Part shown: positions 529 to 62,915 of the stretch, in pieces
Numbering within the stretch: position 1 is the first letter of the stretch
Layout of the letters: every line of letters starts with the position of its first letter
Virus record (IMG/VR): IMGVR_UViG_3300029305_005870
Length of the DNA: 64,000 nucleotides
Direction: 5' to 3' (one strand)
DNA from: a virus
Taxonomy: Duplodnaviria > Caudoviricetes
Made by a program: the position numbers and the translations under genes
The notes under the pieces: model-generated
Told to the model about the DNA's origin: nothing
Database searches by the model: none
What the model saw: only the letters and a program-made list of their open reading frames with translations

Positions 529-762
529 TTATATTATTTCTATAACACTATCTTCTTTATCTATATTATTTGCTAATATTACTTTTCCTAAGTTACTATC
601 TCCTACTATTTTATTTTCTTCTATTCTTACATTAGTTATAGTACATTTTACTTCTTTATTTACTATTACTTCTTTATTTATATTTGGAATTGTATTTGGA
701 ATTACTATATCATTTAAATTATATCTTCAATTACTTCTTGGTTTTAATTTAAGATATGGCAT
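529..762 (-). CDS. Hypothetical protein (77 aa, one TGA-Trp)
   Basis: AGGAG RBS, ATG at 762, open to TAA at 529 in table 4; absent from the track. Confidence 0.65.
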
Positions 763-802
763 AATGTTTTTCTCCTGTTTAAGTTGTTTACCTTAGTAGA
801 TA

Positions 803-1135
803 TTATTCTACCTTATCCCTTATCGCAAATGGATTTAGATTACCTGTGCTTTCATTTCCTTCTGTTACAGTAATATATTTATCCAGTGATATATCAAATA
901 TCTTATCCAATTTATTTACTGATCTGACTTTTGGTTCTTCTATTACTACTTCCCAATCTTCTGCTAAACAATTCTTTACAGTTAGATCTAGACTTCCTTC
1001 TGTTATTTGTTGTCCGCTTTGTAGTTTAATAGTTAACTTACCATTTACTCCATCTATATACCAGTATCCTTTGAAACAAGGTCTTTTTATTTTACATCCT
1101 TCTAACATTCTTAAATATGCTTCTTTGAATATCAT
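803..1135 (-). CDS. DUF2829 / Tad2-like protein
   Basis: N-terminal MxFxEA...GxKIKR and C-terminal LAEDWEVV motifs typical of DUF2829. Confidence 0.65.
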   Translation of the reverse strand: MIFKEAYLRMLEGCKIKRPCFKGYWYIDGVNGKLTIKLQSGQQITEGSLDLTVKNCLAEDWEVVIEEPKVRSVNKLDKIFDISLDKYITVTEGNESTGNLNPFAIRDKVE

Positions 1136-1140
1136 TATTA

Positions 1141-1329
1141 TTACTCCTTTACTTTTATTCCTAATTCTTCAATCTGTTGTAGAAATTCTTGGAACCAAGT
1201 ACTATTATATACATCTTTCTTTATATAACATCTTATGCATACTTCATCTTCTTCTGGTAACTCTTCTACTAATTGATTTAATAATTTTATAGCTTCCTTA
1301 CCTTTTTGTTTAATCTTTGTTGTTTCCAT
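1141..1329 (-). CDS. Hypothetical protein
   Basis: ORF track; start moved to METTK downstream of an AAAGG RBS. Confidence 0.6.
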   Translation of the reverse strand: METTKIKQKGKEAIKLLNQLVEELPEEDEVCIRCYIKKDVYNSTWFQEFLQQIEELGIKVKE

Positions 1330-1401
1330 ATTTTTTCTTTTTCTACCTTTTATATAATTACTTGAGTAAATACATGATTTCATTATCTCTAAGTTTTAAC
1401 A

Positions 1402-1806
1402 TTATTTCTTCTCCTTAAATATTAGACTAGGTCTTATGATGTTATATTTGTCTAATAGTTCTGGGTTTTCGTGGATATTACCTAATACAGTTAAAGCACG
1501 ATAACCTTCTACAAACCAGAATCTACGTGAAAAATCCACTCTATTAATTACTCTTACAATTTTAGAATCATCTTCTGTAATAAATGCAACTATATCATCC
1601 TCAAATACTTCTCTTCCATCTGAGGTTAAACGGTTTGTAGTCTGCATTAATATGAAATCATCTTGATCATACCATTCACTGTCAAATTTGATTCTCATAT
1701 TATTAAAGTCAATTAAGTCTGGAGTACACATAAATTTATGATCTACTAACCAGGCTCTATATTTATAATTGTGATATCTATCATATTTCAATTCCATTCC
1801 CAACAC
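1402..1806 (-). CDS. YopX-family protein
   Basis: KYRAW...LMQTT...GREVFEDDIV...VLGNIHENPELL. Confidence 0.85.
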   Translation of the reverse strand: MLGMELKYDRYHNYKYRAWLVDHKFMCTPDLIDFNNMRIKFDSEWYDQDDFILMQTTNRLTSDGREVFEDDIVAFITEDDSKIVRVINRVDFSRRFWFVEGYRALTVLGNIHENPELLDKYNIIRPSLIFKEKK

Positions 1807-1814
1807 CTCTTATC

Positions 1815-2279
1815 TTAAGAATAATTCCACTTTAAAGTTAAATCATAGGTTTCGCCACCTCTTGTATGACGTCTATCATCATGAGAAAATAATCCAATGC
1901 CATCTGATTTTCTTTCTGTTATTGTTAATAACATTTCCTCAGATGATATTACTTTATCATATTCATCATAAATATCAAATTGCTGAAATACTCTCTTCCA
2001 ATCATCCAAATTATTAATACCTAATTCAGGGTAGATACATAAACTGAACTTCCATCCATATGAAGATTTACCTATGTGTAATTCAAAGTAAAAATCAATA
2101 TCTTCAAGATTCTTATAGTAAGTTCTTTGGAAGACATAACCATTAGTTAATTCTATGATAGTTTCATTTCTATCAAGAAAGAAATGATCTTGTTTTTCTA
2201 AGATATGAAGTAAATTAATATATTCTTCTTTTGAATTAACTTTATATTTCAAATAATAATTACATCCCACAATAATCAA
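1815..2279 (-). CDS. Hypothetical phage protein
   Basis: LHIGKSSYGWKF...IYDEY motifs recalled from phage hypothetical proteins. Confidence 0.7.
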   Translation of the reverse strand: MIIVGCNYYLKYKVNSKEEYINLLHILEKQDHFFLDRNETIIELTNGYVFQRTYYKNLEDIDFYFELHIGKSSYGWKFSLCIYPELGINNLDDWKRVFQQFDIYDEYDKVISSEEMLLTITERKSDGIGLFSHDDRRHTRGGETYDLTLKWNYS

Positions 2280-2286
2280 ATCCTCT

Positions 2287-2478
2287 CTACATTTTATCTA
2301 ATTGCTTAAGTAAACATGCAATTTCATCATCTACCAATTTTAAAATCTTATCTAATAAACATTGACTACAATCTATATCCGGATCAGTAAAAGCATCCTC
2401 TATCCAATCTCTAAATCTTTCTGTTCCTTCTAAAGTGGTTAATAGACTAACTACCTCTAGTGCTTTTTCTCTAGTCAT
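2287..2478 (-). CDS. Hypothetical protein
   Basis: ORF tightly packed in the operon. Confidence 0.6.
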   Translation of the reverse strand: MTREKALEVVSLLTTLEGTERFRDWIEDAFTDPDIDCSQCLLDKILKLVDDEIACLLKQLDKM

Positions 2479-2480
2479 AC

Positions 2481-2930
2481 TTAATTTGACCTCGTCAAAT
2501 AACTATTTATGAAGCTACTATATAAACTGAATAATCTATCAATATCACCTGGCTTATGTCCATCCCAAGGTTCTGCAAATTCTCTTACTTCAATCTTAAA
2601 TAAATCCCAATACTTCATATCACAATGATAACTGTAATCTCCTTGTGGAGTTTTAATACTTGCTAAGAACATGTCATCATATCCAGTTCCATCAGCGTGC
2701 TTCTTTGCTTTATAAGAAAGTGTTGGATATTCATTACATAAGCAAGCAAATAGCTTTGTTCTATGTTCATATAATTCATTGAATGTATGATAACCATCAC
2801 TTGTTTCACCATTTATTTCTGTAGAAGTGTTTTGATTTTTTAAATCTCTTACAGCTTTATAAACAAGTCTTTTTAAAGTTTCATCTTCAATTTCATATTG
2901 TTCTAATTTTAATAAATCTTCTTTAGTCAT
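2481..2930 (-). CDS. WDGH-motif phage protein
   Basis: SDGYHTFNELYEHR...KKHADG...SYH...WDLF...WDGH. Confidence 0.75.
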   Translation of the reverse strand: MTKEDLLKLEQYEIEDETLKRLVYKAVRDLKNQNTSTEINGETSDGYHTFNELYEHRTKLFACLCNEYPTLSYKAKKHADGTGYDDMFLASIKTPQGDYSYHCDMKYWDLFKIEVREFAEPWDGHKPGDIDRLFSLYSSFINSYLTRSN

Positions 2931-3124
2931 TATTTTTCTCCTAACTTTAAATATTCTTCATATTTTTCTCTACTTCCGAATATCATAATCAATTCTTCTT
3001 CTGAATAGAATTGGCTAATCACAGTAGGTTTAGTATGTAATAAATTTAAACGTAGAGCCATTAGATTTGACTTATAACATTTTTCTGTTAATTCGAGTAT
3101 AACTTGTTCTTCTCTTGGTGTCAT
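2930..3124 (-). CDS. Hypothetical protein
   Basis: Stop/start overlap with the neighbouring gene. Confidence 0.6.
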   Translation of the reverse strand: MTPREEQVILELTEKCYKSNLMALRLNLLHTKPTVISQFYSEEELIMIFGSREKYEEYLKLGEK

Positions 3125-3130
3125 ATTACT

Positions 3131-3334
3131 TTATTCCCTTCTATCATTACCTATTATAAAATCCGATATTTTATTACCTAAAAATTTAAATATTAATAAA
3201 ACTGCTGTGATATATAAAACAAATAAAACTAAAAATAACCAATTATTAATATCTGATATAATTAATATTGGCACTAAAGGAATTACAAATATGGTAATTA
3301 TAAATAACATCTTTCCTGCTTGAATGTTTTTCAT
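3131..3334 (-). CDS. Small two-TM membrane protein
   Basis: Two hydrophobic segments; GAGGAG RBS. Confidence 0.65.
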   Translation of the reverse strand: MKNIQAGKMLFIITIFVIPLVPILIISDINNWLFLVLFVLYITAVLLIFKFLGNKISDFIIGNDRRE

Positions 3335-3356
3335 TTCTTTTCAACTCCTCTTACCA

Positions 3357-3464
3357 TTAATATGTGCAAGCTCAATATTTAAAAGGTTTTCTAGTTATCT
3401 TAGATAAGAATTTACATCCTTTACATGATTTTCTTTTTAGTGGACATTTAAGCTTACTCTTCAT
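3357..3464 (-). CDS. Small Cys-rich protein (35 aa, one TGA-Trp)
   Basis: MKSKLKCPLKRKSCKGCKFL...YWACTY; fills the gap and overlaps the upstream stop. Confidence 0.45.
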
Positions 3465-4014
3465 TTGAAGTCACAACCTTATTAAATATATCTTCATATT
3501 TAGAATTAGGTATTTGAACTTGTCTTAAGAACCATTTATAATCGCCCTCTTGATTTTTACCATACCAAACATTCTCAAATTTAATATTATTTTGATAACA
3601 TAAATTTTCTATAATTGAATCTATACCTAGTAATTTTTTATCTAGTTCAGTAAATGATACATTGAAGAAATACCATTGATCCTTAACATTCTTGGCAAAT
3701 TTCAGAATATATACATCACTAAGATGACTTTCAATTATTTCAATATAATCAGTTTGGTGTCAGTAATCAATATCACTATAATTTTTAAATTTAAATTCTT
3801 TAGTTGCAACTTCATAAAATAATGAATCTGGAATATCTTCCTCCAGATCATCATTTAAATATTCATATGCCTCTGCTTCAGTTTCAAAATAACCTAAATA
3901 ATCATCTGAATCTCCACAAGTCTCACAATACAACTCATCATACTCTAATTCATAATCTCTTGAATAGATATTACCATTTAAATGATTTCTATAAAAATAA
4001 GGCATTTTATTCAA
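3454..4014 (-). CDS. Hypothetical protein with CxxC (186 aa in table 4)
   Basis: Track ORF 3760..4014 continues about 100 codons past TGA to TAA. Confidence 0.75.
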
Positions 4015-4255
4015 CCTCCTGAAACAGATTTATATTCATAATCATACATTTATTACTTTTTATAATATACAATATTGTGTAAGGTATAAAACTAAAAATA
4101 ATTAAATTTGTATAACAATGTACTATTTTTGTTAATACCTCAGTATTCAATTCAAATACATATGAACCAAAACAAAATATTAGAACAAATACAAATATTG
4201 ATATAACATAACTTAATAAAGCAGTATATTCAAATGTAAATATTTTATTAGTCAT
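4007..4255 (-). CDS. Small membrane protein
   Basis: Two hydrophobic segments; overlaps both neighbours. Confidence 0.6.
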   Translation of the reverse strand: MTNKIFTFEYTALLSYVISIFVFVLIFCFGSYVFELNTEVLTKIVHCYTNLIIFSFIPYTILYIIKSNKCMIMNINLFQEVE

Positions 4256-4502
4256 TATTCACACCTTCATTCTTTTGGATAAGTGAATTTAAATATTCCG
4301 CAATATCTTCCATATCCCAATGATAATCATTACATGTTCCACAACCCCATTCACGAATTTCATTAGTTAAAGGATGTTTATATGCTAATACAAAACTCAT
4401 ACCATAATCATCTAAATAAATTTCAAATTCTATTCCATTACATATTTCCGTCTTTATATAATTAAAGTATTCACTAGTCTCTAATAAATGTTCTTTTCCC
4501 AC
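4248..4502 (-). CDS. Hypothetical protein
   Basis: AGGAGG RBS. Confidence 0.7.
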   Translation of the reverse strand: MGKEHLLETSEYFNYIKTEICNGIEFEIYLDDYGMSFVLAYKHPLTNEIREWGCGTCNDYHWDMEDIAEYLNSLIQKNEGVNND

Positions 4503-4513
4503 TATATTACCTC

Positions 4514-4897
4514 CTAATGTAATGATAGGAATGTAATAATTTTTCCTTTTACAAAATCATCATAATCCTTATCGCTTATTATTAAAACTGAAATTATATC
4601 TACATTATTTAATGGATAATATTTTCCATCTTTATAGATTACCTCTGCTACATGAACTTCTTGTGTGCTTGGATAATTTTCTAATCCTGTGATATAAGCA
4701 ACCTTATCTCCTTCATAAATATCTTTGCCATCATCATCTTTCATTCCAGTATATTGAAGTAGCTGTATCTCACTGAAATCACCATAACGATCTTTATGAC
4801 CAATCCAAGTTCCATGAAGTAAATCTAAACCTGTTATCTGTACTACTTCACCAGTTTTAATTATTCTAGCTTTAAATTTAATTTCATTATTTTTCAT
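4514..4897 (-). CDS. YopX-family protein
   Basis: IKFKAR...LLQYTGMKDDDGKDIYEGD. Confidence 0.85.
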   Translation of the reverse strand: MKNNEIKFKARIIKTGEVVQITGLDLLHGTWIGHKDRYGDFSEIQLLQYTGMKDDDGKDIYEGDKVAYITGLENYPSTQEVHVAEVIYKDGKYYPLNNVDIISVLIISDKDYDDFVKGKIITFLSLH

Positions 4898-4902
4898 AAG
4901 TA

Positions 4903-5295
4903 TTACTCCTCAGAAAATATTTTATTTATAAATTCAATTATTCTTTTATAACCGTTAGGTTTATATTCATTTAAATTGTTAACTACTTCATTCTTTTTAC
5001 ATATAATTATATTCAATCTCTCTTCAGCTGCTTGTGCCTTGGTAATAGTTTTTGCATTATTATTAATTAAATATGTTTGTATTCTATCCTCAATATAATC
5101 TTTAACAGCATTTAGTTCCTCGGCCTCAGCTACATAAGACCAATAGGAAAAATCACTTTTACAATTCTTTCTGTTAGCCTCATTTCTATCTAAACTAATA
5201 TGAATAACTGATAATTCAGTTATTAACTTATCGGTAGTCAAATCTTTAAGTGCATTAATTTTTTTGTCTACTACTTCTTGATTTCCATAGATCAT
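4903..5295 (-). CDS. Hypothetical protein
   Basis: GGAGG RBS, operon packing. Confidence 0.65.
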   Translation of the reverse strand: MIYGNQEVVDKKINALKDLTTDKLITELSVIHISLDRNEANRKNCKSDFSYWSYVAEAEELNAVKDYIEDRIQTYLINNNAKTITKAQAAEERLNIIICKKNEVVNNLNEYKPNGYKRIIEFINKIFSEE

Positions 5296-5301
5296 AATAC
5301 T

Positions 5302-5640
5302 TTACCTCCCGATTTTTATATAAGGTTGTTTGGGAATTAATATAAATATTTTTTCTAGTTGACTTAATTCCTTCTTATTTACATTACCAATTTGAATATA
5401 TTCTTTACTATCTATTCTATATGCTGGATGTATTTGAATAAATAAATTATATCTTTCCTCTTTTACATCTGGTTCTAGTTCAAATAATAAAGGACTTAAT
5501 AAACCCTTAACTGATTGAAAGTCTCTTAAATTTTCTAATAAATATATTACAAAACCAACTAACTCTCCTATATCTTTACATTTAGTAATTTTTAATAAAT
5601 AATGAAGTTTATCTGCTTCTAATTCAGTATTAGTCATCAT
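5302..5640 (-). CDS. Hypothetical protein
   Basis: Start moved to MMTN after a GAGGAGG RBS. Confidence 0.6.
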   Translation of the reverse strand: MMTNTELEADKLHYLLKITKCKDIGELVGFVIYLLENLRDFQSVKGLLSPLLFELEPDVKEERYNLFIQIHPAYRIDSKEYIQIGNVNKKELSQLEKIFILIPKQPYIKIGR

Positions 5641-5956
5641 ATACCTCCTCAAGAAGAATTCCATTTCTAAACGATCCCTTATCAAATCCTTTTAGAGTTT
5701 GTAGCCTCTTAACCTCTTTATCATCTATATCCCATATCCAACAAAGAGCTTCAATAACTTCTAAAACATCTGCCATTTCTTCTTTTATATTTTTTATATT
5801 TGAAGAATCCAATTCAGCCATTAACTCTTTACATTCTTCTTCTAACTTTAATTTTAGATAATGCTTATGTTCTGGTCTATCTAATAATCTAAATTTACAC
5901 TTTTTACCTGAAGCTTCAATGAATAAAGGTATTGAATCTCTAACTAGCTTTGGCAT
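5630..5956 (-). CDS. MazG-like / PRA-PH all-alpha nucleoside triphosphate pyrophosphohydrolase
   Basis: MPKLVRD.IP...KLEEECKE...EEMADVLEVI...KGSF. Confidence 0.85.
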   Translation of the reverse strand: MPKLVRDSIPLFIEASGKKCKFRLLDRPEHKHYLKLKLEEECKELMAELDSSNIKNIKEEMADVLEVIEALCWIWDIDDKEVKRLQTLKGFDKGSFRNGILLEEVYDD

Positions 5957-5958
5957 TT

Positions 5959-6210
5959 TTATTTACCTCCTCTTTGATTTCACAATATTCTTGCTTGTTC
6001 TTTTATTTCTCCATCTGTTTCAATAGAATATCTTCCCTTATAATCATAATAAGATACTTTCTTAGTTCTCACTCTAGGACCATAAGTATGACAATGCTTA
6101 CAGTAGAATTGACAATTATAACCTGCCTTGTTACCACTAGAAGCTGTTTTAATACTATATTCTATTTTATCACTATTGCAGAAAGGACAAGGTTTTAATA
6201 TAGAATTCAT
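5959..6210 (-). CDS. Lar-like restriction-alleviation zinc-ribbon protein
   Basis: LKPCPFC...CKHC; in table 4 it ends ILWNQRGGK, matching the family WNxR terminus with W encoded by TGA. Confidence 0.8.
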
Positions 6211-6411
6211 TTAAGATACCTCAATTTCTTCATCTTTCCATATCGAATATCTCGGATGTTTACTTCTATCTACATCCTCTTTAATCGTGAAGAATCTAAC
6301 ATCATATATATAAGCATCAATATGAGTTGGTGTAATATCGAATTTTTTAATAAAATATTCTTCTAATTCATTTACAGTACAATCTCTAACTTTCTTTTTC
6401 ATAATTAACAA
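6211..6411 (-). CDS. Hypothetical protein
   Basis: ORF track, operon packing. Confidence 0.6.
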   Translation of the reverse strand: MLIMKKKVRDCTVNELEEYFIKKFDITPTHIDAYIYDVRFFTIKEDVDRSKHPRYSIWKDEEIEVS

Positions 6412-6623
6412 CTAACCTCACTTATTGTTTCTTCTAATTCTTCTATATAATCTTCTAAATCTATTATCTTATTTTTTAATTCTTCTACTTCAGGAATATC
6501 TTCTGCACAATCAGTTATAAATATTTCTCCTAACTGATTTGTTTCAACTATAATTTTATTATTACCAAATTGTTTTCCTTTTAAAGCTTTTCTGATAGCA
6601 TCTTCTAATTTATAATATATCAT
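6405..6623 (-). CDS. Hypothetical protein, C-terminal coiled coil
   Basis: ORF track, overlaps neighbours. Confidence 0.6.
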   Translation of the reverse strand: MIYYKLEDAIRKALKGKQFGNNKIIVETNQLGEIFITDCAEDIPEVEELKNKIIDLEDYIEELEETISEVSC

Positions 6624-6936
6624 TTAATAACTCCTTTACATTTCTTCCTAATAAGATTAATCTTTTTAAATAATCTAATTTATTTTTTTCTGCACAATAT
6701 ACTAAAATTAAATCCTTTAATTCAGATATAATTTCATTTTTATTACTATAATAATTTAAATATTTAGAGTATCGATTTCCATATATAAATTCAAAAACAT
6801 CATAAATATAATAATCTAAATTATCATATTTAGAAGGATATAAATCTATTTCAGATATTAATTCTTCTATAAAACCATCAATATCATAAAAATTAATTTC
6901 TTCTCTTAAAAAATCTTTCTTTAAAATAAGTAACAT
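6610..6936 (-). CDS. Hypothetical protein
   Basis: ORF track, AAGGA RBS. Confidence 0.6.
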   Translation of the reverse strand: MLLILKKDFLREEINFYDIDGFIEELISEIDLYPSKYDNLDYYIYDVFEFIYGNRYSKYLNYYSNKNEIISELKDLILVYCAEKNKLDYLKRLILLGRNVKELLNDIL

Positions 6937-6950
6937 AATATATCATCCTT

Positions 6951-7205
6951 TTACTCTACTAAAGTTACATCCAATATAGGAGTATTAATTTCTTCATATT
7001 CATCAAAAAGAGATGTTTCTAATTTTACTTGAATGCATTTTATTTCTAAATCACTTAAATATTCAAAAGACTCTAGTTCAAAATGTTTTTTATATTCATT
7101 TGTATCTATAACTTCTATGTATCCCTGATAATTAGTAAATAAGTATATTTCTAATTTACCTTTTTTTATTTTTTGTAATAAGTCTTTTAGAATCATTTTG
7201 ATCAC
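6951..7205 (-). CDS. Hypothetical protein
   Basis: ORF track. Confidence 0.55.
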   Translation of the reverse strand: MIKMILKDLLQKIKKGKLEIYLFTNYQGYIEVIDTNEYKKHFELESFEYLSDLEIKCIQVKLETSLFDEYEEINTPILDVTLVE

Positions 7206-7458
7206 TTTCTTTCGTTTTAATATAGTTGTATTTAATCATGCTGTCCAAACCTAAAGGATATTCATAATCAATTAATTTTATTTTTAAAATAAAATTATTT
7301 ATATTTGTAAATTCTTCATCTATTGTGTAATCTAAATAAGGATTTAAAGATTCAATATTATATAAAAAATTTCCGTAAAATCTAGAATTATATTTATTAT
7401 ATAAAGAGATATATAAATCTTTATTTAATTTTTTATTAAAATATTCACGTAATTTCAT
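7156..7458 (-). CDS. Hypothetical protein
   Basis: ORF track. Confidence 0.55.
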   Translation of the reverse strand: MKLREYFNKKLNKDLYISLYNKYNSRFYGNFLYNIESLNPYLDYTIDEEFTNINNFILKIKLIDYEYPLGLDSMIKYNYIKTKESDQNDSKRLITKNKKR

Positions 7459-7469
7459 AACTTAAATTC

Positions 7470-8057
7470 CTAAATAAATAATTCTTCAATAATTGGCTTT
7501 ATTTCATAATCACTGAATTCTCTTAGATAAGTATATTCAATTGCTTCATATAATGAATCAGAAATTTCTTTTAAATGATACTCTCTCCATACAGTATACA
7601 ACCAATCAGTATACTCATTCATTGTTGCAAAATGACCAACATAGTCTTCTAAACATTGACCACAAGATACAGTTTCAAAATTAAAGATACCCTCTTCATT
7701 TTCAAATTCATAATCGGTGCAACTACAATCACAAATTGCTTTATAATATTTACCTTCATAGTTTTGATCCACAATTTCTTGCATTAATTGTTTTTTAATG
7801 TTATCATCAAAATTTGCACATTCTAAATCAATTTCAGGGTGTGCTTCTGAACAATACTTATCCCATTCAAATCCACAATCATCGAAGTAGGAAATACAGT
7901 CATTAAGTCTAAAGTCATTACAGTTAATTAATTTACCTACAGAAGCACACATTGAAAATTCATTATTACCTTTTTGGTTCTTTCTAACTTCAACCTCAAA
8001 TATAATTATCTCTTTTTCTTCATAATTTATTCCAGCTAATAATTTAAATTTTAACAT
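7470..8057 (-). CDS. Hypothetical acidic, Cys-rich protein
   Basis: 195-aa ORF with GAGGG RBS, first gene of the accessory operon. Confidence 0.75.
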   Translation of the reverse strand: MLKFKLLAGINYEEKEIIIFEVEVRKNQKGNNEFSMCASVGKLINCNDFRLNDCISYFDDCGFEWDKYCSEAHPEIDLECANFDDNIKKQLMQEIVDQNYEGKYYKAICDCSCTDYEFENEEGIFNFETVSCGQCLEDYVGHFATMNEYTDWLYTVWREYHLKEISDSLYEAIEYTYLREFSDYEIKPIIEELFI

Positions 8058-8196
8058 TGTTAACCCTCTTATTTTAATATATCATTTTCGCTTTTAAATC
8101 AAGGTTTATTTTTAGTATAATAATTTTTTATTTACTATTTAATAAAATAACGTTTAAAAGCAAATAAAGCATTATTTAAATAAAGTTAAAATATTT

Positions 8197-8664
8197 TTAT
8201 TTATTAATATGCTCTAATATCTTTTCATAATTTTCTTTTGTAGTTACTACTACATAATCAACAACTTCATTTATAATAAAATTCTTTAATTCTTCTTTAA
8301 AAGATTCATTATTTTTAATTTCTTTCTTTAAAGGATTTTTATCTAAAGATTCAGTAATTTTTTGTTTTATAAAACTTGAATAATTCTTTTCTTTTAAGTA
8401 ATTAATTAATTCTTTTTCATCAGTATATCCTACATTAGTTCTATGAAATCTTTGAGCAATTATATCATTAACTTTAATTGGATCGTCATTTTCAATTTGA
8501 AGTAACAAATCTTTTTTGTCTTCATCTACTAAAGTTTCTAATTTTTTAATTTCTTCTTTATTTTTATTTATTTGAGAAAGTAAATCCTCATTCTTTTTAT
8601 TAAGTTCTTCTATTTCACTTTGATTAATATAAATTCTATCAATAAGACAATCTCTATTTAACAT
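8197..8664 (-). CDS. Mu Gam-like host-nuclease inhibitor (candidate)
   Basis: N-terminal coiled coil, then ELINYLKE...FIKQK..ESLDKNPLKKEI, resembling Gam/gp157-type C-termini. Confidence 0.5.
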   Translation of the reverse strand: MLNRDCLIDRIYINQSEIEELNKKNEDLLSQINKNKEEIKKLETLVDEDKKDLLLQIENDDPIKVNDIIAQRFHRTNVGYTDEKELINYLKEKNYSSFIKQKITESLDKNPLKKEIKNNESFKEELKNFIINEVVDYVVVTTKENYEKILEHINK

Positions 8665-8711: not shown

Positions 8712-8739
8712 AAAATGAAGGAATTTTTACCTTCATTTT
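8712..8739 (-). terminator. Intrinsic terminator
   Basis: aaaatgaagg-N8-ccttcatttt directly after the AP2 gene stop. Confidence 0.7.
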
Positions 8740-9757
8740 AATTTGTTTTATGATTTTTTCTGTATTTCTTTTTTCTACGTCTATTTGCTTTCATAAAGTC
8801 ATTTTTATGTTCTTTATATCATTTAATACCTTTTTGAGCTGCTTTCTTTCTAGCTTTAATAGCTTTTCCTTTTGAAGTAAAATCTCCTAAATAAGTTCTT
8901 TTACCATCTATTTCTATATAAGCTCTTCATTTATTATAAGCTTCTCCTCTATATTTACTTACAAAATAAACACCTGTATATCCAGAAGTATTACTTGATA
9001 ATTTTTTATTTCCTTTATATAAACCATTTATAGTATCTAGTTTAGATTCAATGTTAGTATCTGAACAAATACAAGAACCATATTTATCTGGATCACTTAC
9101 AAGATTACTTAAAAATACTTTCTTTTCTCTACCACAATTAGTACATCTTGTGTGAGCAAATAATCTAGAATCTCTATATTTTTTTCTTCTATAAATATTT
9201 AAAATTTTTTGTTGATTAAAAGTTTTCTTTTGAAGTTTATCTAATTCATCATCAGTATAAGTTTCTGTAATAGCATTATTTTTAATACATATATAAACTT
9301 CATCAAATCCTTTTAATGATGTATCCCAATCTCTAAAAATAGTTCATCCATTTCTATCTAAACTAAAGTTTTCATCTTGTATGTCTGCAAGTGAAATATT
9401 TTTTCCAAATCTTGTAGTTCTACATTTGAATTTATCTTTTCCTATATTATTTAAAGCATTGATAAATTTATTTAAAGGATAAATTCCAGGTAATCCATTT
9501 TTCATTTGATTTTCAAATTCAAAATTATCAATTAATTCGATATTTGAATAATCATCACCTAAAGATTCATTTAAAGAATTTAAACTAATAATTAAAGTGT
9601 TGTCATCTTTAGTATATGAAATATTATTTTTATCTAAAATATCTAAAGCATCTTCATAATCAATATGAGATTCAAAATAGAAATTTCCTTTTTCATAATT
9701 AATATCTATAAAATTATCATCAAACAATTCAAAAACAGTATCTTCAATATTGTACAT
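8738..9757 (-). CDS. AP2-domain DNA-binding protein with Zn knuckle and acidic N-terminal domains (339 aa)
   Basis: Read through TGA: CTNC...CIC...NTSGYTGVYF...NKW(TGA)RAYIEIDGKRTYLGDF.....AIKAR. Confidence 0.85.
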
Positions 9758-9793
9758 AGATAGTTATCTCCTTTTTAAGAATATTATCTATAT

Positions 9794-9801
9794 AATTTAG
9801 C
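9794..9801 (-). promoter_or_regulatory. GCTAAATT late-promoter-like motif (one of 13 intergenic copies)
   Basis: Also at 12739, 16503, 21479, 23038, 31753, 33647, 42210, 44775, 51337, 52649, 54806 and 55851, each 26-51 nt upstream of a minus-strand start codon. Confidence 0.8.
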
Positions 9802-9805
9802 TGAA

Positions 9806-10846: not shown

Positions 10847-10889
10847 ATGAAAACCTCCTTAAAGTAATTTATTCTATAATACAATTATT

Positions 10890-10920
10890 ACATAAAAAAA
10901 AGAACCTCCGAAGAGGTTCT
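10890..10920 (-). terminator. Intrinsic terminator, copy 1 of a duplicated element
   Basis: agaacctc-cgaa-gaggttct plus A8 (U-tract on the minus strand). Confidence 0.85.
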
Positions 10921-10939
10921 AATTTATTCTTTTTTTAAA

Positions 10940-47666: not shown

Positions 47667-47668
47667 TA

Positions 47669-51291: not shown

Positions 51292-51349
51292 AAGGTTACC
51301 TCCAATCTTTAAAAATATTTTTTTACTAATATATTGAATTTAGCAGTAA

Positions 51350-52620: not shown

Positions 52621-52690
52621 ATTATTTAATCATTCCTTTCATACATTAAATTTAGCTTTTTATAATTTTATAATTTTTTAATTCAAAAAG

Positions 52691-52714
52691 AAAAGAGGAT
52701 ATTAATCCTCTTTT
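52691..52714 (-). terminator. Intrinsic terminator after the tube gene
   Basis: aaaagaggat-atta-atcctctttt. Confidence 0.8.
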
Positions 52715-53352: not shown

Positions 53353-53370
53353 TTTTACTTACCTCCTTTA

Positions 53371-54765
53371 CTATTCAATAACCTCAATTGAATCTGTGAA
53401 TTCAATTGTGAAATCGAAATCTTCTACTGCTTCAATTGGTGCAATTGTAACTCTTGCTGATAAAACTGCTTTTTTACTTGTAGGAATTTTAGTTATTTTA
53501 TATCCTCTAATTCCTTGATTTGCTTTCATTGTTTCTAATAAAGGTTCAACATCATTTTTAAAATTAAACCATAATGTATCTGAATTAGGTTCAAATGTTC
53601 TAGTTCTAGATGCTCTATATAATGTTTTCTTTAAACTACAAGCTAATAATCTAATATTTAAGAAATCAGAAGCAATTAATTGAACATCTCCTCCTGATTT
53701 AGGAGCACTTAATGGATGCATTGTTCTATTTCCCCAAATAACATTTCCATAAGGTTTGACATTTGCTATAACATTTGTAGCAATATGATTTTCTCCTGAA
53801 GTTTTTCCATTAATTGTTTGAGTAGTTCTTGGTTGGAAAATATTAATAGCAGCATCTCCATATTCTTCACTTAATTGAATAGGTGCTAAAGGTGATATTC
53901 CTCTAACTGAACCTGCTATTGCAAATCATTCAGGAGTTCCTTTTCCAACAGAACTTGAATAAGCTACTAAGTAATTTAAGCTAGCAGGGAATAATTTATT
54001 TACTGCTTTTCCATTATAATCTTTTATACTTGAAGATTGAAACATTGGAGCAAATACTGCTGCATAATTTCCTGCTTTTTCTGTTGTTCGCGCAAATGTT
54101 ACACCTGTTCTAGTTACATCATTTTTAGCTGATGTTAAATTATAATTTACTGTATTATCAACTGCTTCAGCTAATTTTTTATTATTAGCATAAGTTATTG
54201 TTGCATCACTTTTAGTTCATACTTTTAATGTATTTCCATCTTCATCTTCTGTGTCAACGAATGAATAATTTCTATAATCTGAACTAGTTGATAATATCGC
54301 AACAGAATCTCCTCTTTCAGCGGCACATTCAATTGCTGCATTTGACATATTTATATTATCAATAACACCTGTAGTTATAAATAATAAATCATATAATCCT
54401 TTATCCTTATAATCTTCGTATAAGTCTGAACATTGTGTAGCGTTTAACTTTTCTGCTTCCTCTATATCAGTGTAAGCACCAAAATATTGTACAGGTAATC
54501 CTTGATTTAAAAGTGTTAATACATATGTTATAGAATCATCTTCTAATAATGTTGTAATATCACTTGAAGCGTCTTCAATTGAATCGATAATTGAATCGAC
54601 TTTATCTGTAAAATCCTTTTTATTTGTATAGAAACCATCTAAAGTAATCTTAGAATCATCTTTAGTTGCTTCTACTTTAATACCTGGAACTAATACAGTA
54701 TTTTCAACATAAGAATAACTACCAGAACCCGTATTATCAATTTCTCTAATTGTAATTGTTGGCAT
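53371..54765 (-). CDS. Tail sheath protein (464 aa)
   Basis: MPTITIREID, PEW(TGA)FAIAGSVRG, IWGNRT, FLNIRLL, FEPNSDTLW..FK. Confidence 0.9.
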
Positions 54766-54821
54766 ACTACATTCTCCTTTTTATTAATAATTAATTTTAT
54801 CATATAATTTAGCTTAGAAAT

Positions 54822-55421
54822 TTATAATTTATTTTTAATAATACCTTCAACATCTTCTATTCTCTTATTTTGTAAAATTGGAATACTATAAATAAAAGCA
54901 TCTTCTACTGTAAAGTTTAAAGTTCATCTAGTAAATTGGTCTGAAAATAATTTTTCAGCTATATCACTGTTATCTGATATTGTAGGATTTAATCTTATAT
55001 AACAAGTGTGATTTATAGAAGAATTATTATAAGGAATTTCAATTTTCATATCAGGACTATTTATTAAATTAAAAATAAAATTTCTTAAATATTCATCTCC
55101 CTCTATAAATTTTTGTGTATAAATATCTAATTGATAAGATATTTGAATAGGAATAGCATCTAATTGTTTTGTTTTTTCTTCATTGTACTCTACTTTCTTT
55201 CCATCGCAAGATAAACTTCTTTTAGTAGGAATTGAAAGATTTATATTTGTATCTCTAGAAATTGCTATTAAAGGTAATGTTAAAGGCTTATCATTATTTT
55301 GATCCGCAGTAATTTGAAATAATCGATTTACTTCATTAGGTTTTAAAATAACCATATTAGGATCAGCAATTCATTTTTTAATTTTATTAACTACTGCTTC
55401 ATCATAAAATCTTATACTCAT
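54822..55421 (-). CDS. Tail terminator / sheath stabiliser, T4 gp15-like (199 aa)
   Basis: LPLIAISR...AIPIQISYQLDIYT; extended at both ends through TGA. Confidence 0.7.
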
Positions 55422-55825
55422 TTTAATATTTTCTCCTTTTCATTATATAAATGATTTAAGAACACTAAAGTATTTTCAATAATTTCATAGAATAAATTAG
55501 TTCCTTTTAAACTTAAATTTCCTTTATTTATTAGGTTATAGATAGTAATTAAATCTAAATTTTTATAATAATTATTTTTTAAATTTAAAGTTTTTGTTTC
55601 TAAGTCTAAATAAAAATTATTTAATATTATATCTATTATATTATATATATTAATATCGAAATTAAAATGATCTGCTATCTTATTTAATCTGTTTCTTATT
55701 GTAACATTTTTTTTATCTTTACTTCTTTTAATTATTTGAAAATATTTTTTTGAAAAGAATTTTAAATGTGTTGACATTTTATCATAATTATATTCTGTCA
55801 TGTATGGAATATCGACTAAAATCAT
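55412..55825 (-). CDS. Hypothetical protein, first gene of the late arm
   Basis: AAAGGAG RBS and GCTAAATT at 55851. Confidence 0.65.
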
Positions 55826-55929
55826 TTTAAAATCTCCTTTCAATATATCTAATTTAGCTGAAATTTAAAGTTTTCAAAATGTATATATTTATATATATAA
55901 TTATTTTAAAGAAAGGATAATTTTTATTT

Positions 55930-56964
55930 ATGCAAGAACAAAAAAAGAAAAAATTTTCTTATTCTAAATTAGATACTTTTAAACAATGTGCTTGAAAATA
56001 TAAATTAATATATGAAGATCATAATTTCATAAGTAAAGGTTCAATTGCTACAGAATTTGGTACTTTAATTCATTATATAGAAGAAACGATGGCTAATAAA
56101 ATAATAAATTATGAGTTATTAAATTATGAAGAATTAAAAAATTTAACTTTAAATATAAACATTTTAGATGAAAAAGAAACTGTTTTAGGAGCAAATATTT
56201 TAAAAAATAAATATCCTAAAGAATGGTTTGAATTAGATAAAAATGGTAAAAATTATGAAGATAAGTTAAATGATTATTTAAATAAAGGTATTTATAGATT
56301 ACGTGACTATTTAATTAGTAATCCTGATTTTGAAATTTTAGGAATTGAAGATGAATTTAATATAGAATTAAACGGTTATATTTTTCACGGATTTATAGAT
56401 AGAGCTTTTAGAAATGTTGTAACAGGAGAAGTATTTATTGAAGATATTAAAACTTGGACAAAAGATTTGGATAAAGATGTATTAACAACTCCTCTTCAAT
56501 TAGTTATTTATTCTTTAGCTGCTAAAGAATTATATGGAGTAGATGAATCTTTAATTCATTGTTCTTATGAACTTCCTTTATGGGATAAACGATATTCTGC
56601 AGGAACAAAAGGATTTATTAATAGAGGACTTAAAAAGATAACATCCTTATTAGAAGAAATTGAAGAAGAAAAATTTGAACCTAATCCTACTCCTTTATGT
56701 CATTGGTGTGACTTCTGCAATACAAATCCTAATCAACCTGAAGAAGGAAAAAATTTATGTCCTTATTTTTGTAAATGGACTAGAGAAACTAAAGATTTTA
56801 GTGTGGAATATGAATGGTTAGGTATCGAAAATCATGAGAAAATATTAGAAGCATTTAATAATAAAAATGTAAAAGAAAACAAAGCTGAAATTAGAATAGA
56901 AAAAATATTACCTAAATTAAATGAAAATATTACTTCAAAAAGAATTTTTATTTTAAGAAAATAA
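55930..56964 (+). CDS. Cas4/AddB-like PD-(D/E)xK exonuclease with Fe-S cysteines (344 aa)
   Basis: FSYSKLDTFKQCAW(TGA)KY, GTLIH, GFIDR, IEDIKT, QLVIY, CHWCDFC...CP. Confidence 0.88.
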
Positions 56965-56975
56965 GAGGTATAAAA

Positions 56976-57461
56976 ATGAAATTTATTGAAAAATTAAAAA
57001 TTTACAAAAATAAAAAATTATGTAGAAAATATCCTTTTTTAATACCTAGAAATGTTTGAACAGGTGAAATCTCAGAGAATTATAATTTTGAAGATACTTA
57101 TAATGACTGATTAGCTCCTGGTTGAAGAAAAGCTTTCGGAAAGAAATTATGAAAAGAATTATCTATAGTTTTAAAAGAACATAATTATGAAAATGAGTTT
57201 TATTTTACTCAAATAAAAGAAAAATGAGGAGAATTAACAATGTATTTTTGTTCTCTTCCTGAAGATATATATGACAATATTTCTAAAATAATTACTAAAT
57301 ACGAAAACCTATCTAGAGAATATTGTTATATATGTGGTAGAAAAACTAAATATTATACTGTAGGATGAATTACATATATTTGTAAAAAATGTGCTAAAAA
57401 ATTTAAAAATTCATCTGCTATAAAGAAAATTGGAGGAATTGATGATGAAAAAGATTTTTAA
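56976..57461 (+). CDS. Phage Zn-binding hypothetical protein (QIKEKxG type, 161 aa)
   Basis: PGW, QIKEKWGEL.MY, CYICG, GWITYICKKC; all six Trp are TGA; absent from the track. Confidence 0.8.
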
Positions 57462-57921
57462 GTTATTTTTAGGAATATTATATTGGATTGTACAATTAAC
57501 TTGAGGATCATTAATGACTATTGTTGGATTATTAGTTACAGGTTTCTGTATTATATTTTTAAAAGGTACTCCTCACAGAAATGGTTTTTCTTATATTGTA
57601 GAAATAGGTGGAAACTGGGGTGGACTTGACTTAGGTGCAGTTGCCTTATGTGGAAGATATAATACTAAAGGTCATAAAGCATATAGTCCAAATTGATTCC
57701 AAGAAACTAGAAAACATGAATTTGGTCATAGTTTACAAAATTTAATTTTTGGTCCTTTTACATTATTTGTTGTAGGTTTACCAAGTACTTTTAGGTATTG
57801 GTATCAAAGAATTATGAAGAAAAAAGGAAAAAGATTTCCTTCTGATTGGTATGACAGTATTTGATTTGAAGGAACTGCGACTACTTGAGGAGAAAAAGTA
57901 GTTACATGAATTGAAAATTAA
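57445..57921 (+). CDS. Membrane protein with HExxH zincin motif
   Basis: TM segments; RKHEFGHSLQ...WFE..A. Confidence 0.75.
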
Positions 57922-57933
57922 ACTTAATTAGAT

Positions 57934-57963
57934 AAAATAGGTTGAGTTATCAACCTATTTTTT
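57934..57963 (+). terminator. Intrinsic terminator
   Basis: aaaataggttga-gtta-tcaacctatttttt. Confidence 0.8.
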
Positions 57964-57964
57964 A

Positions 57965-57976
57965 TTGTATTATAAT
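57965..57976 (+). promoter_or_regulatory. TTGTAT(A/T)-type early/middle promoter motif
   Basis: ttgtattataat; related motifs near 8696, 10879, 12731, 27589 and 43286 (minus) and 55880 and 63901 (plus), mostly before non-structural genes. Confidence 0.55.
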
Positions 57977-58014
57977 ATGTATTTTTATAACTATTTAGTG
58001 AAAGGAGTTTATGC

Positions 58015-59049
58015 ATGAAATTTCTTATTTATGGAGATGTTCATTTTAGTACTTATTCTTCAATTATTAGAAGCAAAGGAGAGAAGTATTCTAAAAGACT
58101 TGAAAATTTAATTAAAAGTATAAATTGAGCTGAGGATTTAGCAATTAAACATAATTGTGATGAAATAATTTCTTTAGGTGATTTTTTCGATAAACCAGAC
58201 TTAAATAGTGAAGAATTAACTGCTTTAACTGAAATTAAATGGGCTGATATTCCTCATTCAGTTATTGTTGGAAATCATGAATCTCCACATAAAGCTTTAA
58301 AATATAATAGTGTAAATGCTTTATATAACTTAGGGTTCAACATAATATCAGAAGTTTCTTTTAGAAATTTAGAAGATTGTTCTCTATATTTTTTACCTTA
58401 TATCTTAGAAGAAGATAGAAAATGTTTAAGTGAATATATTAAATTAAATATTAATTCTAAGGATAGAAAAATATTTTTTAGTCATAATGATATTAAAGCT
58501 CAATTTGGACAATTTTTATCAAAAGAAGGGTTTGAAATAGAAGATATTGAACAGAATAGTTCTTTATTTTTAAATGGCCACCTTCACAATGGTAGTTCAT
58601 TTTGTCGTAATGGATTTAACCTAGGTAATTTAACAGGCCAAAATTTTGGAGAAGATGCATATAAATATTCACATAATATTTATATACTAGATACTGAAAA
58701 CTCGAGTTTAGAGTCTTATGAAAATCCTTATGCTTTTAATTTCTATCAAATCGATTTTAAAGCTAATTCAAATTTTTCTGAGTTAACTACATTAAAAGAA
58801 AATTCAGTTGTTAGTTTAAAATGTTTTAGAAATGATTTAGATAGATTAAAATCAATTTTAAAAGATTGTAAAAATATTACAGAATCTAGAATTATAGTAA
58901 AAAAAGAATTTTCAGATATGGAAGAATTAGATTCCACATTAGAAAAATTTAATAGTATTGATTACTTATCTCAATTTAAAATTTTTGTTCAAAATAAATT
59001 AGGAGTTCATCCAGTAATTGAGCAAGAATTAAATAGAATAATAAAATAA
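58015..59049 (+). CDS. sbcD: SbcD/Mre11 nuclease (T4 gp47-like)
   Basis: GDVH, LGDFFD, VGNHE, FSHND, NGHLH; absent from the track because of TGA. Confidence 0.92.
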
Positions 59050-59076
59050 ATATTTGAAAGGGAGGTTATAAAATCT

Positions 59077-59265
59077 ATGTATAAATACTTTTTATTATAT
59101 TATATAAAAGATTTTGATGATAAGTTAGTAGGAGGTTTAAATAGTACCTCTATTAATTTATCTTATGAATTAAATAAAAGCAGTATTAGAAGACTTGAAA
59201 ATTTTTTAAAGAAAAGTTTAAATGTAAAAAGAGTAACTATAGTAAATTATTCTAAAATAAATTAA
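59077..59265 (+). CDS. Hypothetical protein
   Basis: GGAGG RBS. Confidence 0.55.
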   Translation: MYKYFLLYYIKDFDDKLVGGLNSTSINLSYELNKSSIRRLENFLKKSLNVKRVTIVNYSKIN

Positions 59266-59282
59266 AGAAAGGAAATTTTAAT

Positions 59283-61349
59283 ATGAATATAAGCTTTGAA
59301 AAAGTTATAATACATAACTTTCTTTCTTATGGACATACTGAAATAAACTTAAAAGATAAAGGATATTGTTTAGTTTCAGGTATTAATAATAATCCATTAG
59401 ATAACGCATTATCCAATGGTGCAGGTAAATCAACTTGATCTTCAGCGATTTGTTGGGCTTTAACAGGTCAAACTATTCAAGGAATATCTAGTAATATAAA
59501 AAATATAAATATTGATGAAAATTCTTGTTATGTTGAATTATATTTTTATATAGATAAAGATTATTATACAATAAAAAGATTCAAAGAACCTAAATCAGAT
59601 TTAAAAATTTTTATAAATAATGAAGAAAAATCAGGAAAAGGTATTAGAGAATCTGAAGCAATTTTAAATCAATATTTACCTGATTTAAGTTCTAATTTAA
59701 TAGCATCTATAATCATTTTAGGACAAGGATTACCTTGTAAATTTACCTCTAATTCACCTTCAGGAAGAAAAGAAGTCTTAGAAAAATTATCAAAATCTGA
59801 TTTTATGATTCAAGATATTAAAGAGCGTTTAAATAAAGTTATAAATGAGAATAATACTTCTTTAAGAGAAACTGAAGATGCATTATTAACTATAGAAACA
59901 AAATCTAAGATGCTAAAAACAGAGTTTGAAAGTAATGATTTAAAATTAAAAGAATTGAAAAAACCTCAAAATTTTGATTCTAATATTTTAAAGATAGAAA
60001 ATAATATTGATGATATAAACAAATCGATTGTACAAGCTAATAGACAGCTTTCTGAAGCTGAAAATGAAATTACTTTATTAGATAAAGAGTTAAATACTAT
60101 TTTAAATGATAAAAATAACTTAATACAATCTGAAAATAATGAATTCAATAACTTTAAGAATGAGTATTTAAGTAGAAAGAATATTTTAACAACTGATTTT
60201 AATACTAAAAATAATGAATTAAATTCTGAAATGAATGTAAATAAAAATAATTTAAGTATTGAATTCAATAAAAATAAATCTTTATTTGATATAGATATAT
60301 TAAAACTAGAAAAAGAAATTAAGGAATTAAAATCTATAAAGGATATTTGTCCTACTTGTGGACAAAAACTTCCTAACATAGTAAAACCTGATACTTCTAT
60401 TCAAGAAACCAAATTATTAGAATTAAAAAATAGTTTAGTAAATTTAACTGAAAGTTATAATTTAAATTTAAAAAATACTAATTCAAAATATGTAACTCTT
60501 CAAACAGAGTTAAAAAATAATTATAATGTTTCTATTACAAATTTAGATTTGAAATATACAGAATGTTTAAAAGAGCATAATTTAATTTTAAATCAAATAG
60601 AAGATAAATATTCTGATACTATAAATAAATTGAATCAAAATATAAAAATTAAAAAAGATGTAAAAAGTAACTTAAATTTAGAAATTAAGAAAAATGAAGC
60701 TACTTTAATTATATTAACTAATGAATTAAATAAAATAAAACTAAATAAAGAGACTTATGAACAAAAAATTAATGAAATTCAAAATCTATTATTATCTATA
60801 GATAATAATATTAAAAAATTAGATGAAGAAAAATTGTATTATATTAATAAGAAGTCTGATATCTCTGTAAAAATTGAAATTGATAATAAAATAAATACTT
60901 TAATTAAAAGAGATTTTAGAGGATTCTTATTATCTAATGTTATTAATTTTATTGATAATAAGTGTAAAGAATATTGTGAAATTATTTTTGGAAATAATAA
61001 TTTAGAATTTATTTTAAATGGTAATAATATTGAAATATCTTATCTAGGAAAATCTTTTGAGAATTTATCTGGTGGAGAAAAACAAAAAGTTGACTTAATT
61101 ATTCAATTTTCTATTCGAGATATGATGTCTCAATATTTAGATTTTAGTTCTAATATTTTAATTTTAGATGAAATCTTTGATCAATTAGATTCATTAGGAT
61201 GCACAAATTTATTAAATCTTATTTCTAATAAACTTAATGACATTGAAAGTACTTTTATTATATCTCATAGAAGTAATGAATTAGCTATTCCTTATGATTG
61301 TGAGATGGTTATAGTAAAAGATGAAAATGGAATAAGTAGGGTGAGATAA
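59283..61349 (+). CDS. sbcC: SbcC/Rad50 ATPase (T4 gp46-like, 688 aa)
   Basis: HNFLSYG, SNGAGKST, Q-loop LGQG, Zn hook CPTCGQ, LSGGE, ILDE, ISH. Confidence 0.93.
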
Positions 61350-61354
61350 AAATT

Positions 61355-62236
61355 ATGGATACTTTCAAAAAACCTGAAGGTATGAAATACACTGATATGT
61401 GTATTTACATAGATGCTAATATGCATAAAGTAGTAAATCCTAATGAATTTCCTCAAATAGAAGCAAATATTTATAAATATTTATATCTAATAGTAAAAGC
61501 TTTAGCTATTAAACAGCATTTATTTAAAGATTGATCATATTATGATGATTTTGCTTTGTATTCAGCAGGAGATTTATTTATGACAATGCGTAAAAAGCAT
61601 ATAAATAAAGGTAAAATAATAAGAGGTAAATTAGTAGAACCTGTTAAATCTTGTTTAAACTTTATTAAGTCTGTTTTATATCCTTTAAAAGTTAATTTTG
61701 AAAAAAATAGATTTGATGAAGTTATAAATCCTGAAATTGATTCTAGATTTAATTCTGAAGCATTACAAGAATCAATGAGAACTCAAGTTAGATCTCAGTA
61801 TATAACAAGTTTAGATAAAGATCTAGAAGAAATTTTAAAAATATTTCCTAAAAAGATATATAATATGTTGAAAAAAGAAAGTCCTTTTAAAACAGATAAA
61901 TTAATGCTTAAACGTATTTATATATCTTGTTTACTTAGTTTTATAAATAAATTAAGTTTACCTAACAAAGATAGAAAAAGAATAGAAGACAGAGAAAAAT
62001 ATCAAGAATATAAAAATGTCATATCTTTATATACTCAAAATGATTGAGAAATTTTACTCTGACATTTAGAACCTGGAATGGAAAATTATATTAGAATATT
62101 ATTAGTTAAAATACAAAGACTATTTACTGATGAATTAAATACAACCCGTTCTAGATTTGATCTAAGTGATGAAGTTATAGATGGAATTTTAAAAACTGCA
62201 TTTAAAACTTATGATAATAATCAAGGAGAATACTAG
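61355..62236 (+). CDS. Hypothetical protein, candidate gp55-like late sigma factor (293 aa)
   Basis: The ORF is solid (3 TGA). Function is inferred from a helical region-2-like pattern (YLYLIVKALA.K...DDFA...KSCLNFIK) and adjacency to gp46/47. Confidence 0.45.
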
Positions 62237-62238
62237 TT

Positions 62239-62640
62239 ATGGGAGTTAGACAAGAAAGAAGAGATTGAATAAATGAGAGATTAAATACATTAGAAAAAAC
62301 TGATGTATATTCTCTTATGTTATTTGCGTTATATAAATTAAGGGATGTTCCAGAATATACAGCTTTAAGTGAATTATCTTATATTTTAGATGGATCTAAT
62401 TTATCAAAATTCTTATCTTTTTATGGAGGAATGACTCTAAAAATTCCTACTCTAAAAGATATGAGATTAATGATTCAAGCATTACTCTTATTTCAATTAG
62501 TTAATTTAGAAGAAACTGAATTAGAAGATGCAATAAAAGTTATTTTAGATAAAAACAGAGAGTTTTCAAGAGATGAACTATTAAAAGCTTACGATACTAT
62601 ATTATTAGTTTCTTCTAAATATGATTTTAGGAGAAACTAA
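62239..62640 (+). CDS. Hypothetical protein with a Mor-like GGxxLxIP motif
   Basis: FLSFYGGMTLKIPT; extended 5' through TGA. Confidence 0.55.
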
Positions 62641-62642
62641 AA

Positions 62643-62915
62643 ATGCTTAACAAATTAAAAGAAAATTTAGTTATTATATCTAGAGACTTACATATGTATG
62701 ATGTTGAAAGAGAATCATTATTTACATACTGTATAAATAAAAAGTTAGAAGCAGCAATGCTAAAATATAAAGAAGATATTAATTTAGATGCTGAATGAGT
62801 TCTATTTAATAAAAACGAACAAGTTTTAAGAGCGTTAACTCAAAATAAAAAATATAACGATAAAGAATTTTTAGATAATGTAATAAATAAAAAATTCAGA
62901 AGAGAGGTCGATTAA
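62643..62915 (+). CDS. Hypothetical protein (90 aa)
   Basis: AGGAG RBS, one TGA, fills the gap exactly. Confidence 0.65.

Follow-up and report, generated by a model that had tools for sequence, protein, structure and literature searches.

TGA-recoded gut phages are already known. In the parts of the study by Borges et al. (bioRxiv 10.1101/2021.08.26.457843; Nat Microbiol 2022) on which we draw, codes 11, 15 and 4 occur inside one clade, recoded genes amount to 26–71% where the host uses the standard code and to ~90% where it uses code 25, a suppressor tRNA is detectable in only 35% of code-4 phages, and low G+C and the loss of TGA stops precede recoding. Here we analyze IMG/VR virus record IMGVR_UViG_3300029305_005870 (Duplodnaviria; Caudoviricetes), a stretch of 64,000 nt (the window) in which many genes are interrupted by in-frame TGA. 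The window is probably the late, recoded part of a large T4-like myovirus that reads UGA as tryptophan in part of its genome and imposes this reading on a standard-code host. What is new is the lineage, which is T4-type and probably infects Bacillota.

Under the standard code (table 11) the window breaks up into 101 short open reading frames (ORFs), of which 48 terminate at TGA, and the greedy ORF coverage is 0.705. Reading TGA as sense raises the coverage to 0.947 and reading TAG as sense gives almost no gain (0.74), a clear answer to the coding-density comparison that a first-pass annotation, made from the sequence alone, had proposed. With TGA as sense the ORFs fuse without frameshifts into 74 close-packed long genes, each ending in TAA or TAG, which bears out the claim of that annotation that the genes are split only by in-frame TGA. 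At least one in-frame TGA is carried by 44 of the 74 genes, and across all of them there are 117 TGA and 72 TGG codons. Over 156.7 kb of the same phage, stitched together as described below, coding density rises from 0.779 to 0.926 with TGA as sense. The G+C content is 24% in the window and 25% in the phage, and no tRNA genes were found in the window. Under table 11 the phage is fragmented and approximately one-quarter of its coding sequence is lost.

The amino acid was assigned by masking TGA as X in all window proteins and aligning these by tblastn with two complete standard-code relatives, G001 and G004. Tryptophan stands opposite 38 of the 72 aligned TGA sites in G001 and 28 of the 58 in G004, compared with 23 of 35 and 17 of 24 at TGG control sites. 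When the 130 aligned TGA sites are pooled, the opposite residue is Trp at 66, Cys at one and Gly at none, and the remainder is mostly Tyr, Phe or Leu. All four terminase TGA sites are W in both relatives; of the four portal sites, all are W in G001 and three in G004. In both relatives WW stands opposite the tandem TGA-TGA at 45660-45665. A second tandem, at 18390-18395, lies 10 codons upstream of the ORF end and is unaligned; it is probably sense as well, because the standard-code orthologue of its gene has W ~12 residues from its own C-terminus. Both tandems had been taken as sense in the first-pass annotation, which is confirmed directly for the former. Judged from these alignments, TGA is a tryptophan codon in this phage.

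The same annotation had already argued for Trp, and not Gly, Sec or leaky readthrough, from motifs that it held to be family-conserved, and the assignment stands even though some of the motifs do not. W is found at the AP2-like NK[W]RAY site, and in both relatives at the portal KI[W]RE, sheath PE[W]FA, nucleotidyltransferase (NTase) NPLI[W] and LY[W]AIA sites, the last in a protein for which the label 'LysM' found no Pfam confirmation. The site labeled 'gp6', however, is F in both relatives. The H[W]THG and Lar sites have no alignment in G001 or G004, and the Lar TGA sits within the Pfam Lar match. Conservation of these Trp residues holds within this phage clade but not outside it, because the portal W302 site is Ala in the alignment with T4 gp20.

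That TGA encodes Gly (code 25) or Sec, is passed by leaky readthrough or is an assembly error for TGG has next to no probability. Nothing favors these readings except the in-frame TGA itself. Columns dominated by Gly, which would have spoken against Trp, did not appear; 66 Trp and a single Cys speak against Gly and Sec alike. Leaky readthrough is hard to reconcile with WW opposite a tandem and with up to 9 TGA per gene. Assembly error is excluded as far as testable, given that contigs assembled independently from other samples show the same TGA at 39 of the 117 sites. A code-25 phage of Gracilibacteria or Absconditabacteria was also considered and rejected on the absence of Gly from the 130 sites. 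The most recoded gene of the window, a family-2 glycosyltransferase at 42250-43251, has 8 TGA in 333 codons, and among 23 database homologues G appears in none of the corresponding columns, most of which are occupied by W, F, Y or L. The more distant homologues mostly carry F, Y or L there and not W, which suggests that Trp, spelled as TGA, is a gain at these positions.

The window covers ~40% of a phage of at least 157 kb. From the window outward, 156.7 kb was stitched using exact-protein look-ups and IMG/VR scans of independent assemblies; the circle is unclosed, and beyond the stitched sequence at least 18 kb more lies on one side, adjoining a TGA-rich block. Genome size is estimated at 154–167 kb from CheckV completeness, and our own tally gives at least 175 kb. 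JGI, ENA and Logan assemblies contain the same phage at 99.98–100% identity, spread over at least 22 contigs. Along the stitched sequence, TGA as a share of Trp codons changes in blocks:

Far left of the stitched sequence: TGA-rich 5-kb block, 8 genes, TGA share of Trp codons 0.54.
Left block: small early-type genes, 59 genes, TGA share 0.11.
Window position 8738 to ~72.9 kb: structural, packaging and recombination block, 65 genes, TGA share 0.70.
Right block: NAD salvage, tRNA maturation, clamp loader, topoisomerase, dUTPase and others, 76 genes, TGA share 0.12.

The two low blocks (~100 kb) differ from the late block with a Fisher p=3e-41. Other NNA/NNG codon pairs are 0.84–0.92 A-ending in every block measured, hence TGA is actively avoided in approximately two-thirds of the genome. 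Over the 156.7 kb, 77 of 208 genes (37%) hold TGA, and several of the 'early' TGAs fall upstream of the probable true start codon. At most 4 of the 135 low-block genes could end at TGA, compared with 8–14% of genes in standard-code relatives. Early and replication genes read alike under both codes, because TGA is nearly absent from them as sense and as stop. Contrary to the first-pass annotation, recoding is not window-wide: TGA and TGG number 4 and 23 in the genes at 529-8664, and 0 and 5 in those for capsid and prohead protease. The test of late-gene concentration (0.70 versus 0.11–0.12) includes lysis genes as candidates only; these probably spell most of their Trp as TGA, like the structural, packaging and recombination genes.

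In the low-TGA right block, ~33 kb right of the window end, the ORF at 96862-97458 (window-relative) ends in TGA-TAA, and its TGA may still act as a stop. A TGA-free module ~15–20 kb right of the window (L090 203-4514; L085) encodes an RlaP-type nucleotidyltransferase, a Thg1-like protein, a YqeY-domain protein, a CCA-adding enzyme and an HD protein. By its predicted domains, this module looks like a set for tRNA repair or maturation, in a phage with only three tRNAs. Closer to the window (~9–13 kb to its right; L077 5980-9643), a TGA-free NAD-salvage cluster comprises NadD-like, NAD synthase, NAPRTase and isochorismatase/PncA genes and adjoins a Vut_1 queuosine-precursor transporter and a peptide deformylase.

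Within the window, the genes are arranged as follows:

529..8664, minus strand: ~23 small early-type genes (Lar-like, MazG-like, YopX, WDGH), 4 TGA versus 23 TGG.
8738..12707, minus strand: AP2-like endonuclease, 346-aa protein, DNA methyltransferase and nuclease, 3 TGA in each except the 346-aa protein (0).
12843..14162, minus strand: major capsid protein (Pfam Gp23, E 4e-36), 0 TGA and 2 TGG.
14194..16500, minus strand: prohead protease fusion of 768 aa (Peptidase_S77, E 5e-10), 0 TGA and 3 TGG.
16577..23002, minus strand: four large proteins, two with BspA-type LRR domains, 2–3 TGA each, including the tandem at 18390-18395.
23532..25373, minus strand: portal protein (Portal_T4, E 2e-38), 4 TGA and 0 TGG.
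25396..27417, minus strand: terminase large subunit (phrog_9), 4 TGA.
27613..36716, minus strand: late genes from gene calls, mostly without assigned function, most with TGA.
28480-29592, minus strand: NTase, 4 TGA.
33144-33596, minus strand: weak holin candidate of 150 aa (sub-threshold Holin_LLH match), 3 TGA and 0 TGG.
37388..41767, minus strand: baseplate-region protein of 1459 aa, 9 TGA.
42250..43251, minus strand: family-2 glycosyltransferase, 8 TGA and 2 TGG.
45396..55843, minus strand: baseplate and tail module, including the tandem TGA-TGA at 45660-45665.
46724-47050, minus strand: gp25-like wedge subunit in the baseplate and tail module.
52702-53352, minus strand: tube (gp19 match 1.7e-5, below the cut-off).
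53371-54765, minus strand: sheath (Phage_sheath_1C, 2e-6).
55930..63180, mostly plus strand: recoded recombination module with a PD-(D/E)XK nuclease, two small genes (6 and 5 TGA), SbcD and SbcC.
62806-63180, minus strand: last gene of the recombination region, from a gene call.

The T4-type core recognized in the first-pass annotation is thus supported by profile matches for capsid (Gp23), portal (Portal_T4), protease (Peptidase_S77) and sheath, with gp19 sub-threshold. Recoding of the recombination module resembles that of the late genes. The protein at 33144-33596 is, from its sub-threshold match, a possible recoded lysis gene; neither Pfam nor PHROGs gave a peptidoglycan-binding or lysin domain, which would have argued for a walled host. 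By sequence, the terminase large subunit (TerL) had no match in PDB. By capsid protein, phages of Bacillus, Listeria and Streptococcus are the closest cultured ones, with ~30% identity.

At the left end of the window, positions 1-127 are an exact copy of 164-290, giving a repeat period of 163 nt. Other assemblies have a single copy of the 127-nt repeat followed by a gene for a 968-aa protein, and several contigs break there. The exact length of 127 nt points to a k-mer artefact where a contig ends, or else to a short tandem repeat. Among further searches, a metagenome contig collection yielded no relative of the query and apparently lacks this phage, a 477-aa left-end protein had no IMG/VR match, and a homing-endonuclease query matched unrelated phages only. 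One variant protein of the phage occurs on a single contig only. Major-capsid fragments of this phage were absent from the IMG/VR collection searched, which held replication-side pieces only.

The capsid and prohead protease genes lie inside the late block and have no TGA among their 5 Trp codons (p=0.002). The orthologues in the two TGA-recoded relatives, L006 and L008, likewise have 0 of 5 each, and pooled over the three TGA-recoded lineages the count is 0 of 15, although sheath, tube, portal and terminase are recoded. A likely reason would be that competition between UGA decoding and release factor 2 (RF2) exacts too high a price for proteins of the highest abundance, which would keep these two genes free of TGA. 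The shared exemption could serve as a guide to the efficiency of UGA decoding.

The TGA-free major capsid protein (MCP) was used as a query to collect related loci, of which IMG/VR yielded 44, and the code of each relative was called by coding density. The complete genomes G001 (180.8 kb) and G004 (148 kb) have table 11 coverage of 0.91 and 0.95, respectively, to which table 4 adds nothing. Besides L006 and L008, in which TGA is recoded, there are TAG-recoded relatives (L017, L018, L020, L032 and L125); the rest are mostly standard-code loci, with a few ambiguous cases. On the MCP tree, a clade with 99% support unites this phage with the standard-code G001 and the TGA-recoded L006 and L008, and the TAG-recoded sister group stands apart. 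Capsid identity to this phage is ~65–70% for the standard-code and the two TGA-recoded relatives and ~50–55% for the TAG-recoded group. The standard, TGA and TAG codes among near relatives offer a good natural series in which to study changes of the genetic code.

Some of these relatives offer hints about decoding and host. G005 (233 kb, complete, TAG-recoded) has a 91-nt tRNA with a CUA anticodon at L074 1501-1591 (G005:40128-40215), labeled 'Pyl' by ARAGORN, which adjoins one other tRNA and lies ~180 kb from the main cluster of ~27 tRNAs. G001 has an ordinary tRNA-Trp(CCA) and a cluster of 13 tRNAs. Relatives with ~50% MCP identity are binned in two low-G+C 'Bacilli'/'Firmicutes' metagenome-assembled genomes (MAGs), both of which encode prfB. 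One of them, the 'Bacilli bacterium' MAG JAZKYN010000044.1, contributes L125, a 3.5-kb contig with a related capsid gene for which TAG as sense lifts the coverage from 0.73 to 0.88. These prfB-bearing MAGs, together with the hosts of the nearest cultured phages, are weak hints to the host, which is probably a member of the Bacillota.

From the pattern of TGA use we infer a temporal switch, a standard-code host and a tRNA(UCA). The host would use the standard code and its unmodified machinery would translate the early genes; next, a UGA decoder that the phage makes or induces would permit completion of the TGA-containing late genes. This decoder would most probably be a tRNA-Trp(UCA) charged by the host tryptophanyl-tRNA synthetase (TrpRS). 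Recoding would thereby be a timing lock on late proteins, the timing of expression being read from gene function. The first-pass annotation had left the choice between a table-4 host and a code imposed by the phage. We favor the latter because TGA is avoided in approximately two-thirds of the genome, only 37% of genes hold TGA and the relatives have mixed codes; the imposing machinery, however, was not found, and several negative results weigh against this reading. The only tRNAs in the 156.7 kb are Ser-GCU, Lys-UUU and Met-CAU, at a site syntenic with the 13-tRNA cluster of G001. No tRNA(UCA) was detected in these 156.7 kb by ARAGORN (default, and relaxed ps80 with introns), by Rfam at E<=1 or by two custom scans, one for a T-arm together with an acceptor, allowing a body of at most 139 nt, and one for paired UCA/CCA-loop hairpins ('two-armed'). 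Stored Pfam gene lists covering ~118 of the 156.7 kb held no release factor, TrpRS or deaminase. The tRNA-Trp(UCA), TrpRS and RF1 named as search targets in the first-pass annotation were thus missing from the 156.7 kb for the tRNA and from the ~118 kb for the proteins. The flanks of the G005 CUA tRNA share no homology with this phage, and synteny with G005 therefore gave no location for a decoder. Together with the TGA-free capsid and protease, the lack of a suppressor tRNA in ~157 kb is a second detail useful for experiments on UGA decoding efficiency.

These absences are what one would see if the host itself used table 4, as a Mollicute of the Mycoplasma/Spiroplasma type or an uncultured low-G+C lineage of Bacilli without RF2 would, since no suppressor is needed there. 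Throughout the phage TGA is also hardly ever a candidate stop, the G+C is very low and relatives are binned with small-genome low-G+C Bacilli. We nevertheless regard a table-4 host as unlikely. Neutral use under a native table 4 would favor TGA throughout, whereas it makes up only 0.11–0.12 of Trp codons over ~100 kb (135 genes) in which 84–92% of the other pairs are A-ending. Phages sharing the code of a recoded host are reported to have recoded codons in ~90% of genes, and this phage has TGA in 37%, capsid and protease avoid TGA in three lineages, the nearest relatives are standard-code or TAG-recoded, and the two MAGs with relatives encode prfB.

More doubtful still is that the phage imposes the code on a standard-code host while encoding no tRNA(UCA) itself. 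Such imposition would work through editing or modification of the anticodon of the host tRNA-Trp, or through a block or depletion of RF2, after which host tRNA-Trp(CCA) would read UGA. Of the stop codons UGA is naturally the leakiest, and tRNA-Trp reads it; the phage has three tRNAs, none with a UCA anticodon, in the 156.7 kb stitched, against an estimated genome size of 154–167 or at least 175 kb; and its tRNA-maturation module (RlaP, Thg1-like, YqeY and CCA-adding enzyme), TGA-free and in a standard-code block, is a possible helper. Genes with 8–9 TGA, however, need efficient decoding, the stored Pfam lists (~118 kb) contain no deaminase or release-factor-like gene, and G005, the one complete TAG-recoded relative examined, uses an ordinary suppressor tRNA. 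The remaining sequence of at least 18 kb, which adjoins a TGA-rich block, could hold the tRNA. If imposition without a tRNA were true, the TGA-free capsid and protease would mark the cost of imperfect decoding.

Imposition by the phage on a standard-code host, the reading we prefer, fits by analogy the phage-driven late-gene recoding of the 'Agate' type, as the passages of Borges et al. describe it. According to these passages, the Agate clade consists of large low-G+C phages in which TGA is Trp, late and structural genes are recoded and replication genes keep the standard code; relatives have codes 11, 15 and 4, TGA stops are depleted and a suppressor tRNA is often undetectable. The likeness is one of pattern, with which size, G+C and mixed codes are compatible, and not of reference sequences compared. 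The phages differ in size (~127–154 kb in the Agate clade as given there, at least 157 kb here) and in that the SbcCD and PD-(D/E)XK nuclease recombination genes are recoded here too. The exemption of capsid and protease in three lineages has no mention in the passages of Borges et al. at hand.

Code blocks with recoded late genes (TAG or TGA) are likewise found in crAss-like and Lak phages (Yutin et al. 2021, PMC7886860; Mgcod 10.1101/2022.06.29.495998), but these are another lineage with Bacteroidota hosts, whereas here the head is T4-type, the tail contractile and the probable host a member of the Bacillota. Table-4 bacteria (Mycoplasmatales, Entomoplasmatales) and their phages share UGA as Trp and a very low G+C with this phage; their reassignment is genome-wide and RF2 is absent, whereas this phage avoids TGA in approximately two-thirds of its genome. 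By gene content, the T4-like Bacillota myoviruses Bacillus phage SP-15 and Listeria phage LIS04 (~30% MCP identity) have in common with it the gp23-type capsid, gp20 portal, gp21-type protease, sheath, tube and gp46/47-like SbcCD, but they use the standard code and are very distant in sequence. With the phage analyzed here, a T4-type, probably Bacillota-infecting lineage joins the recoded phages.

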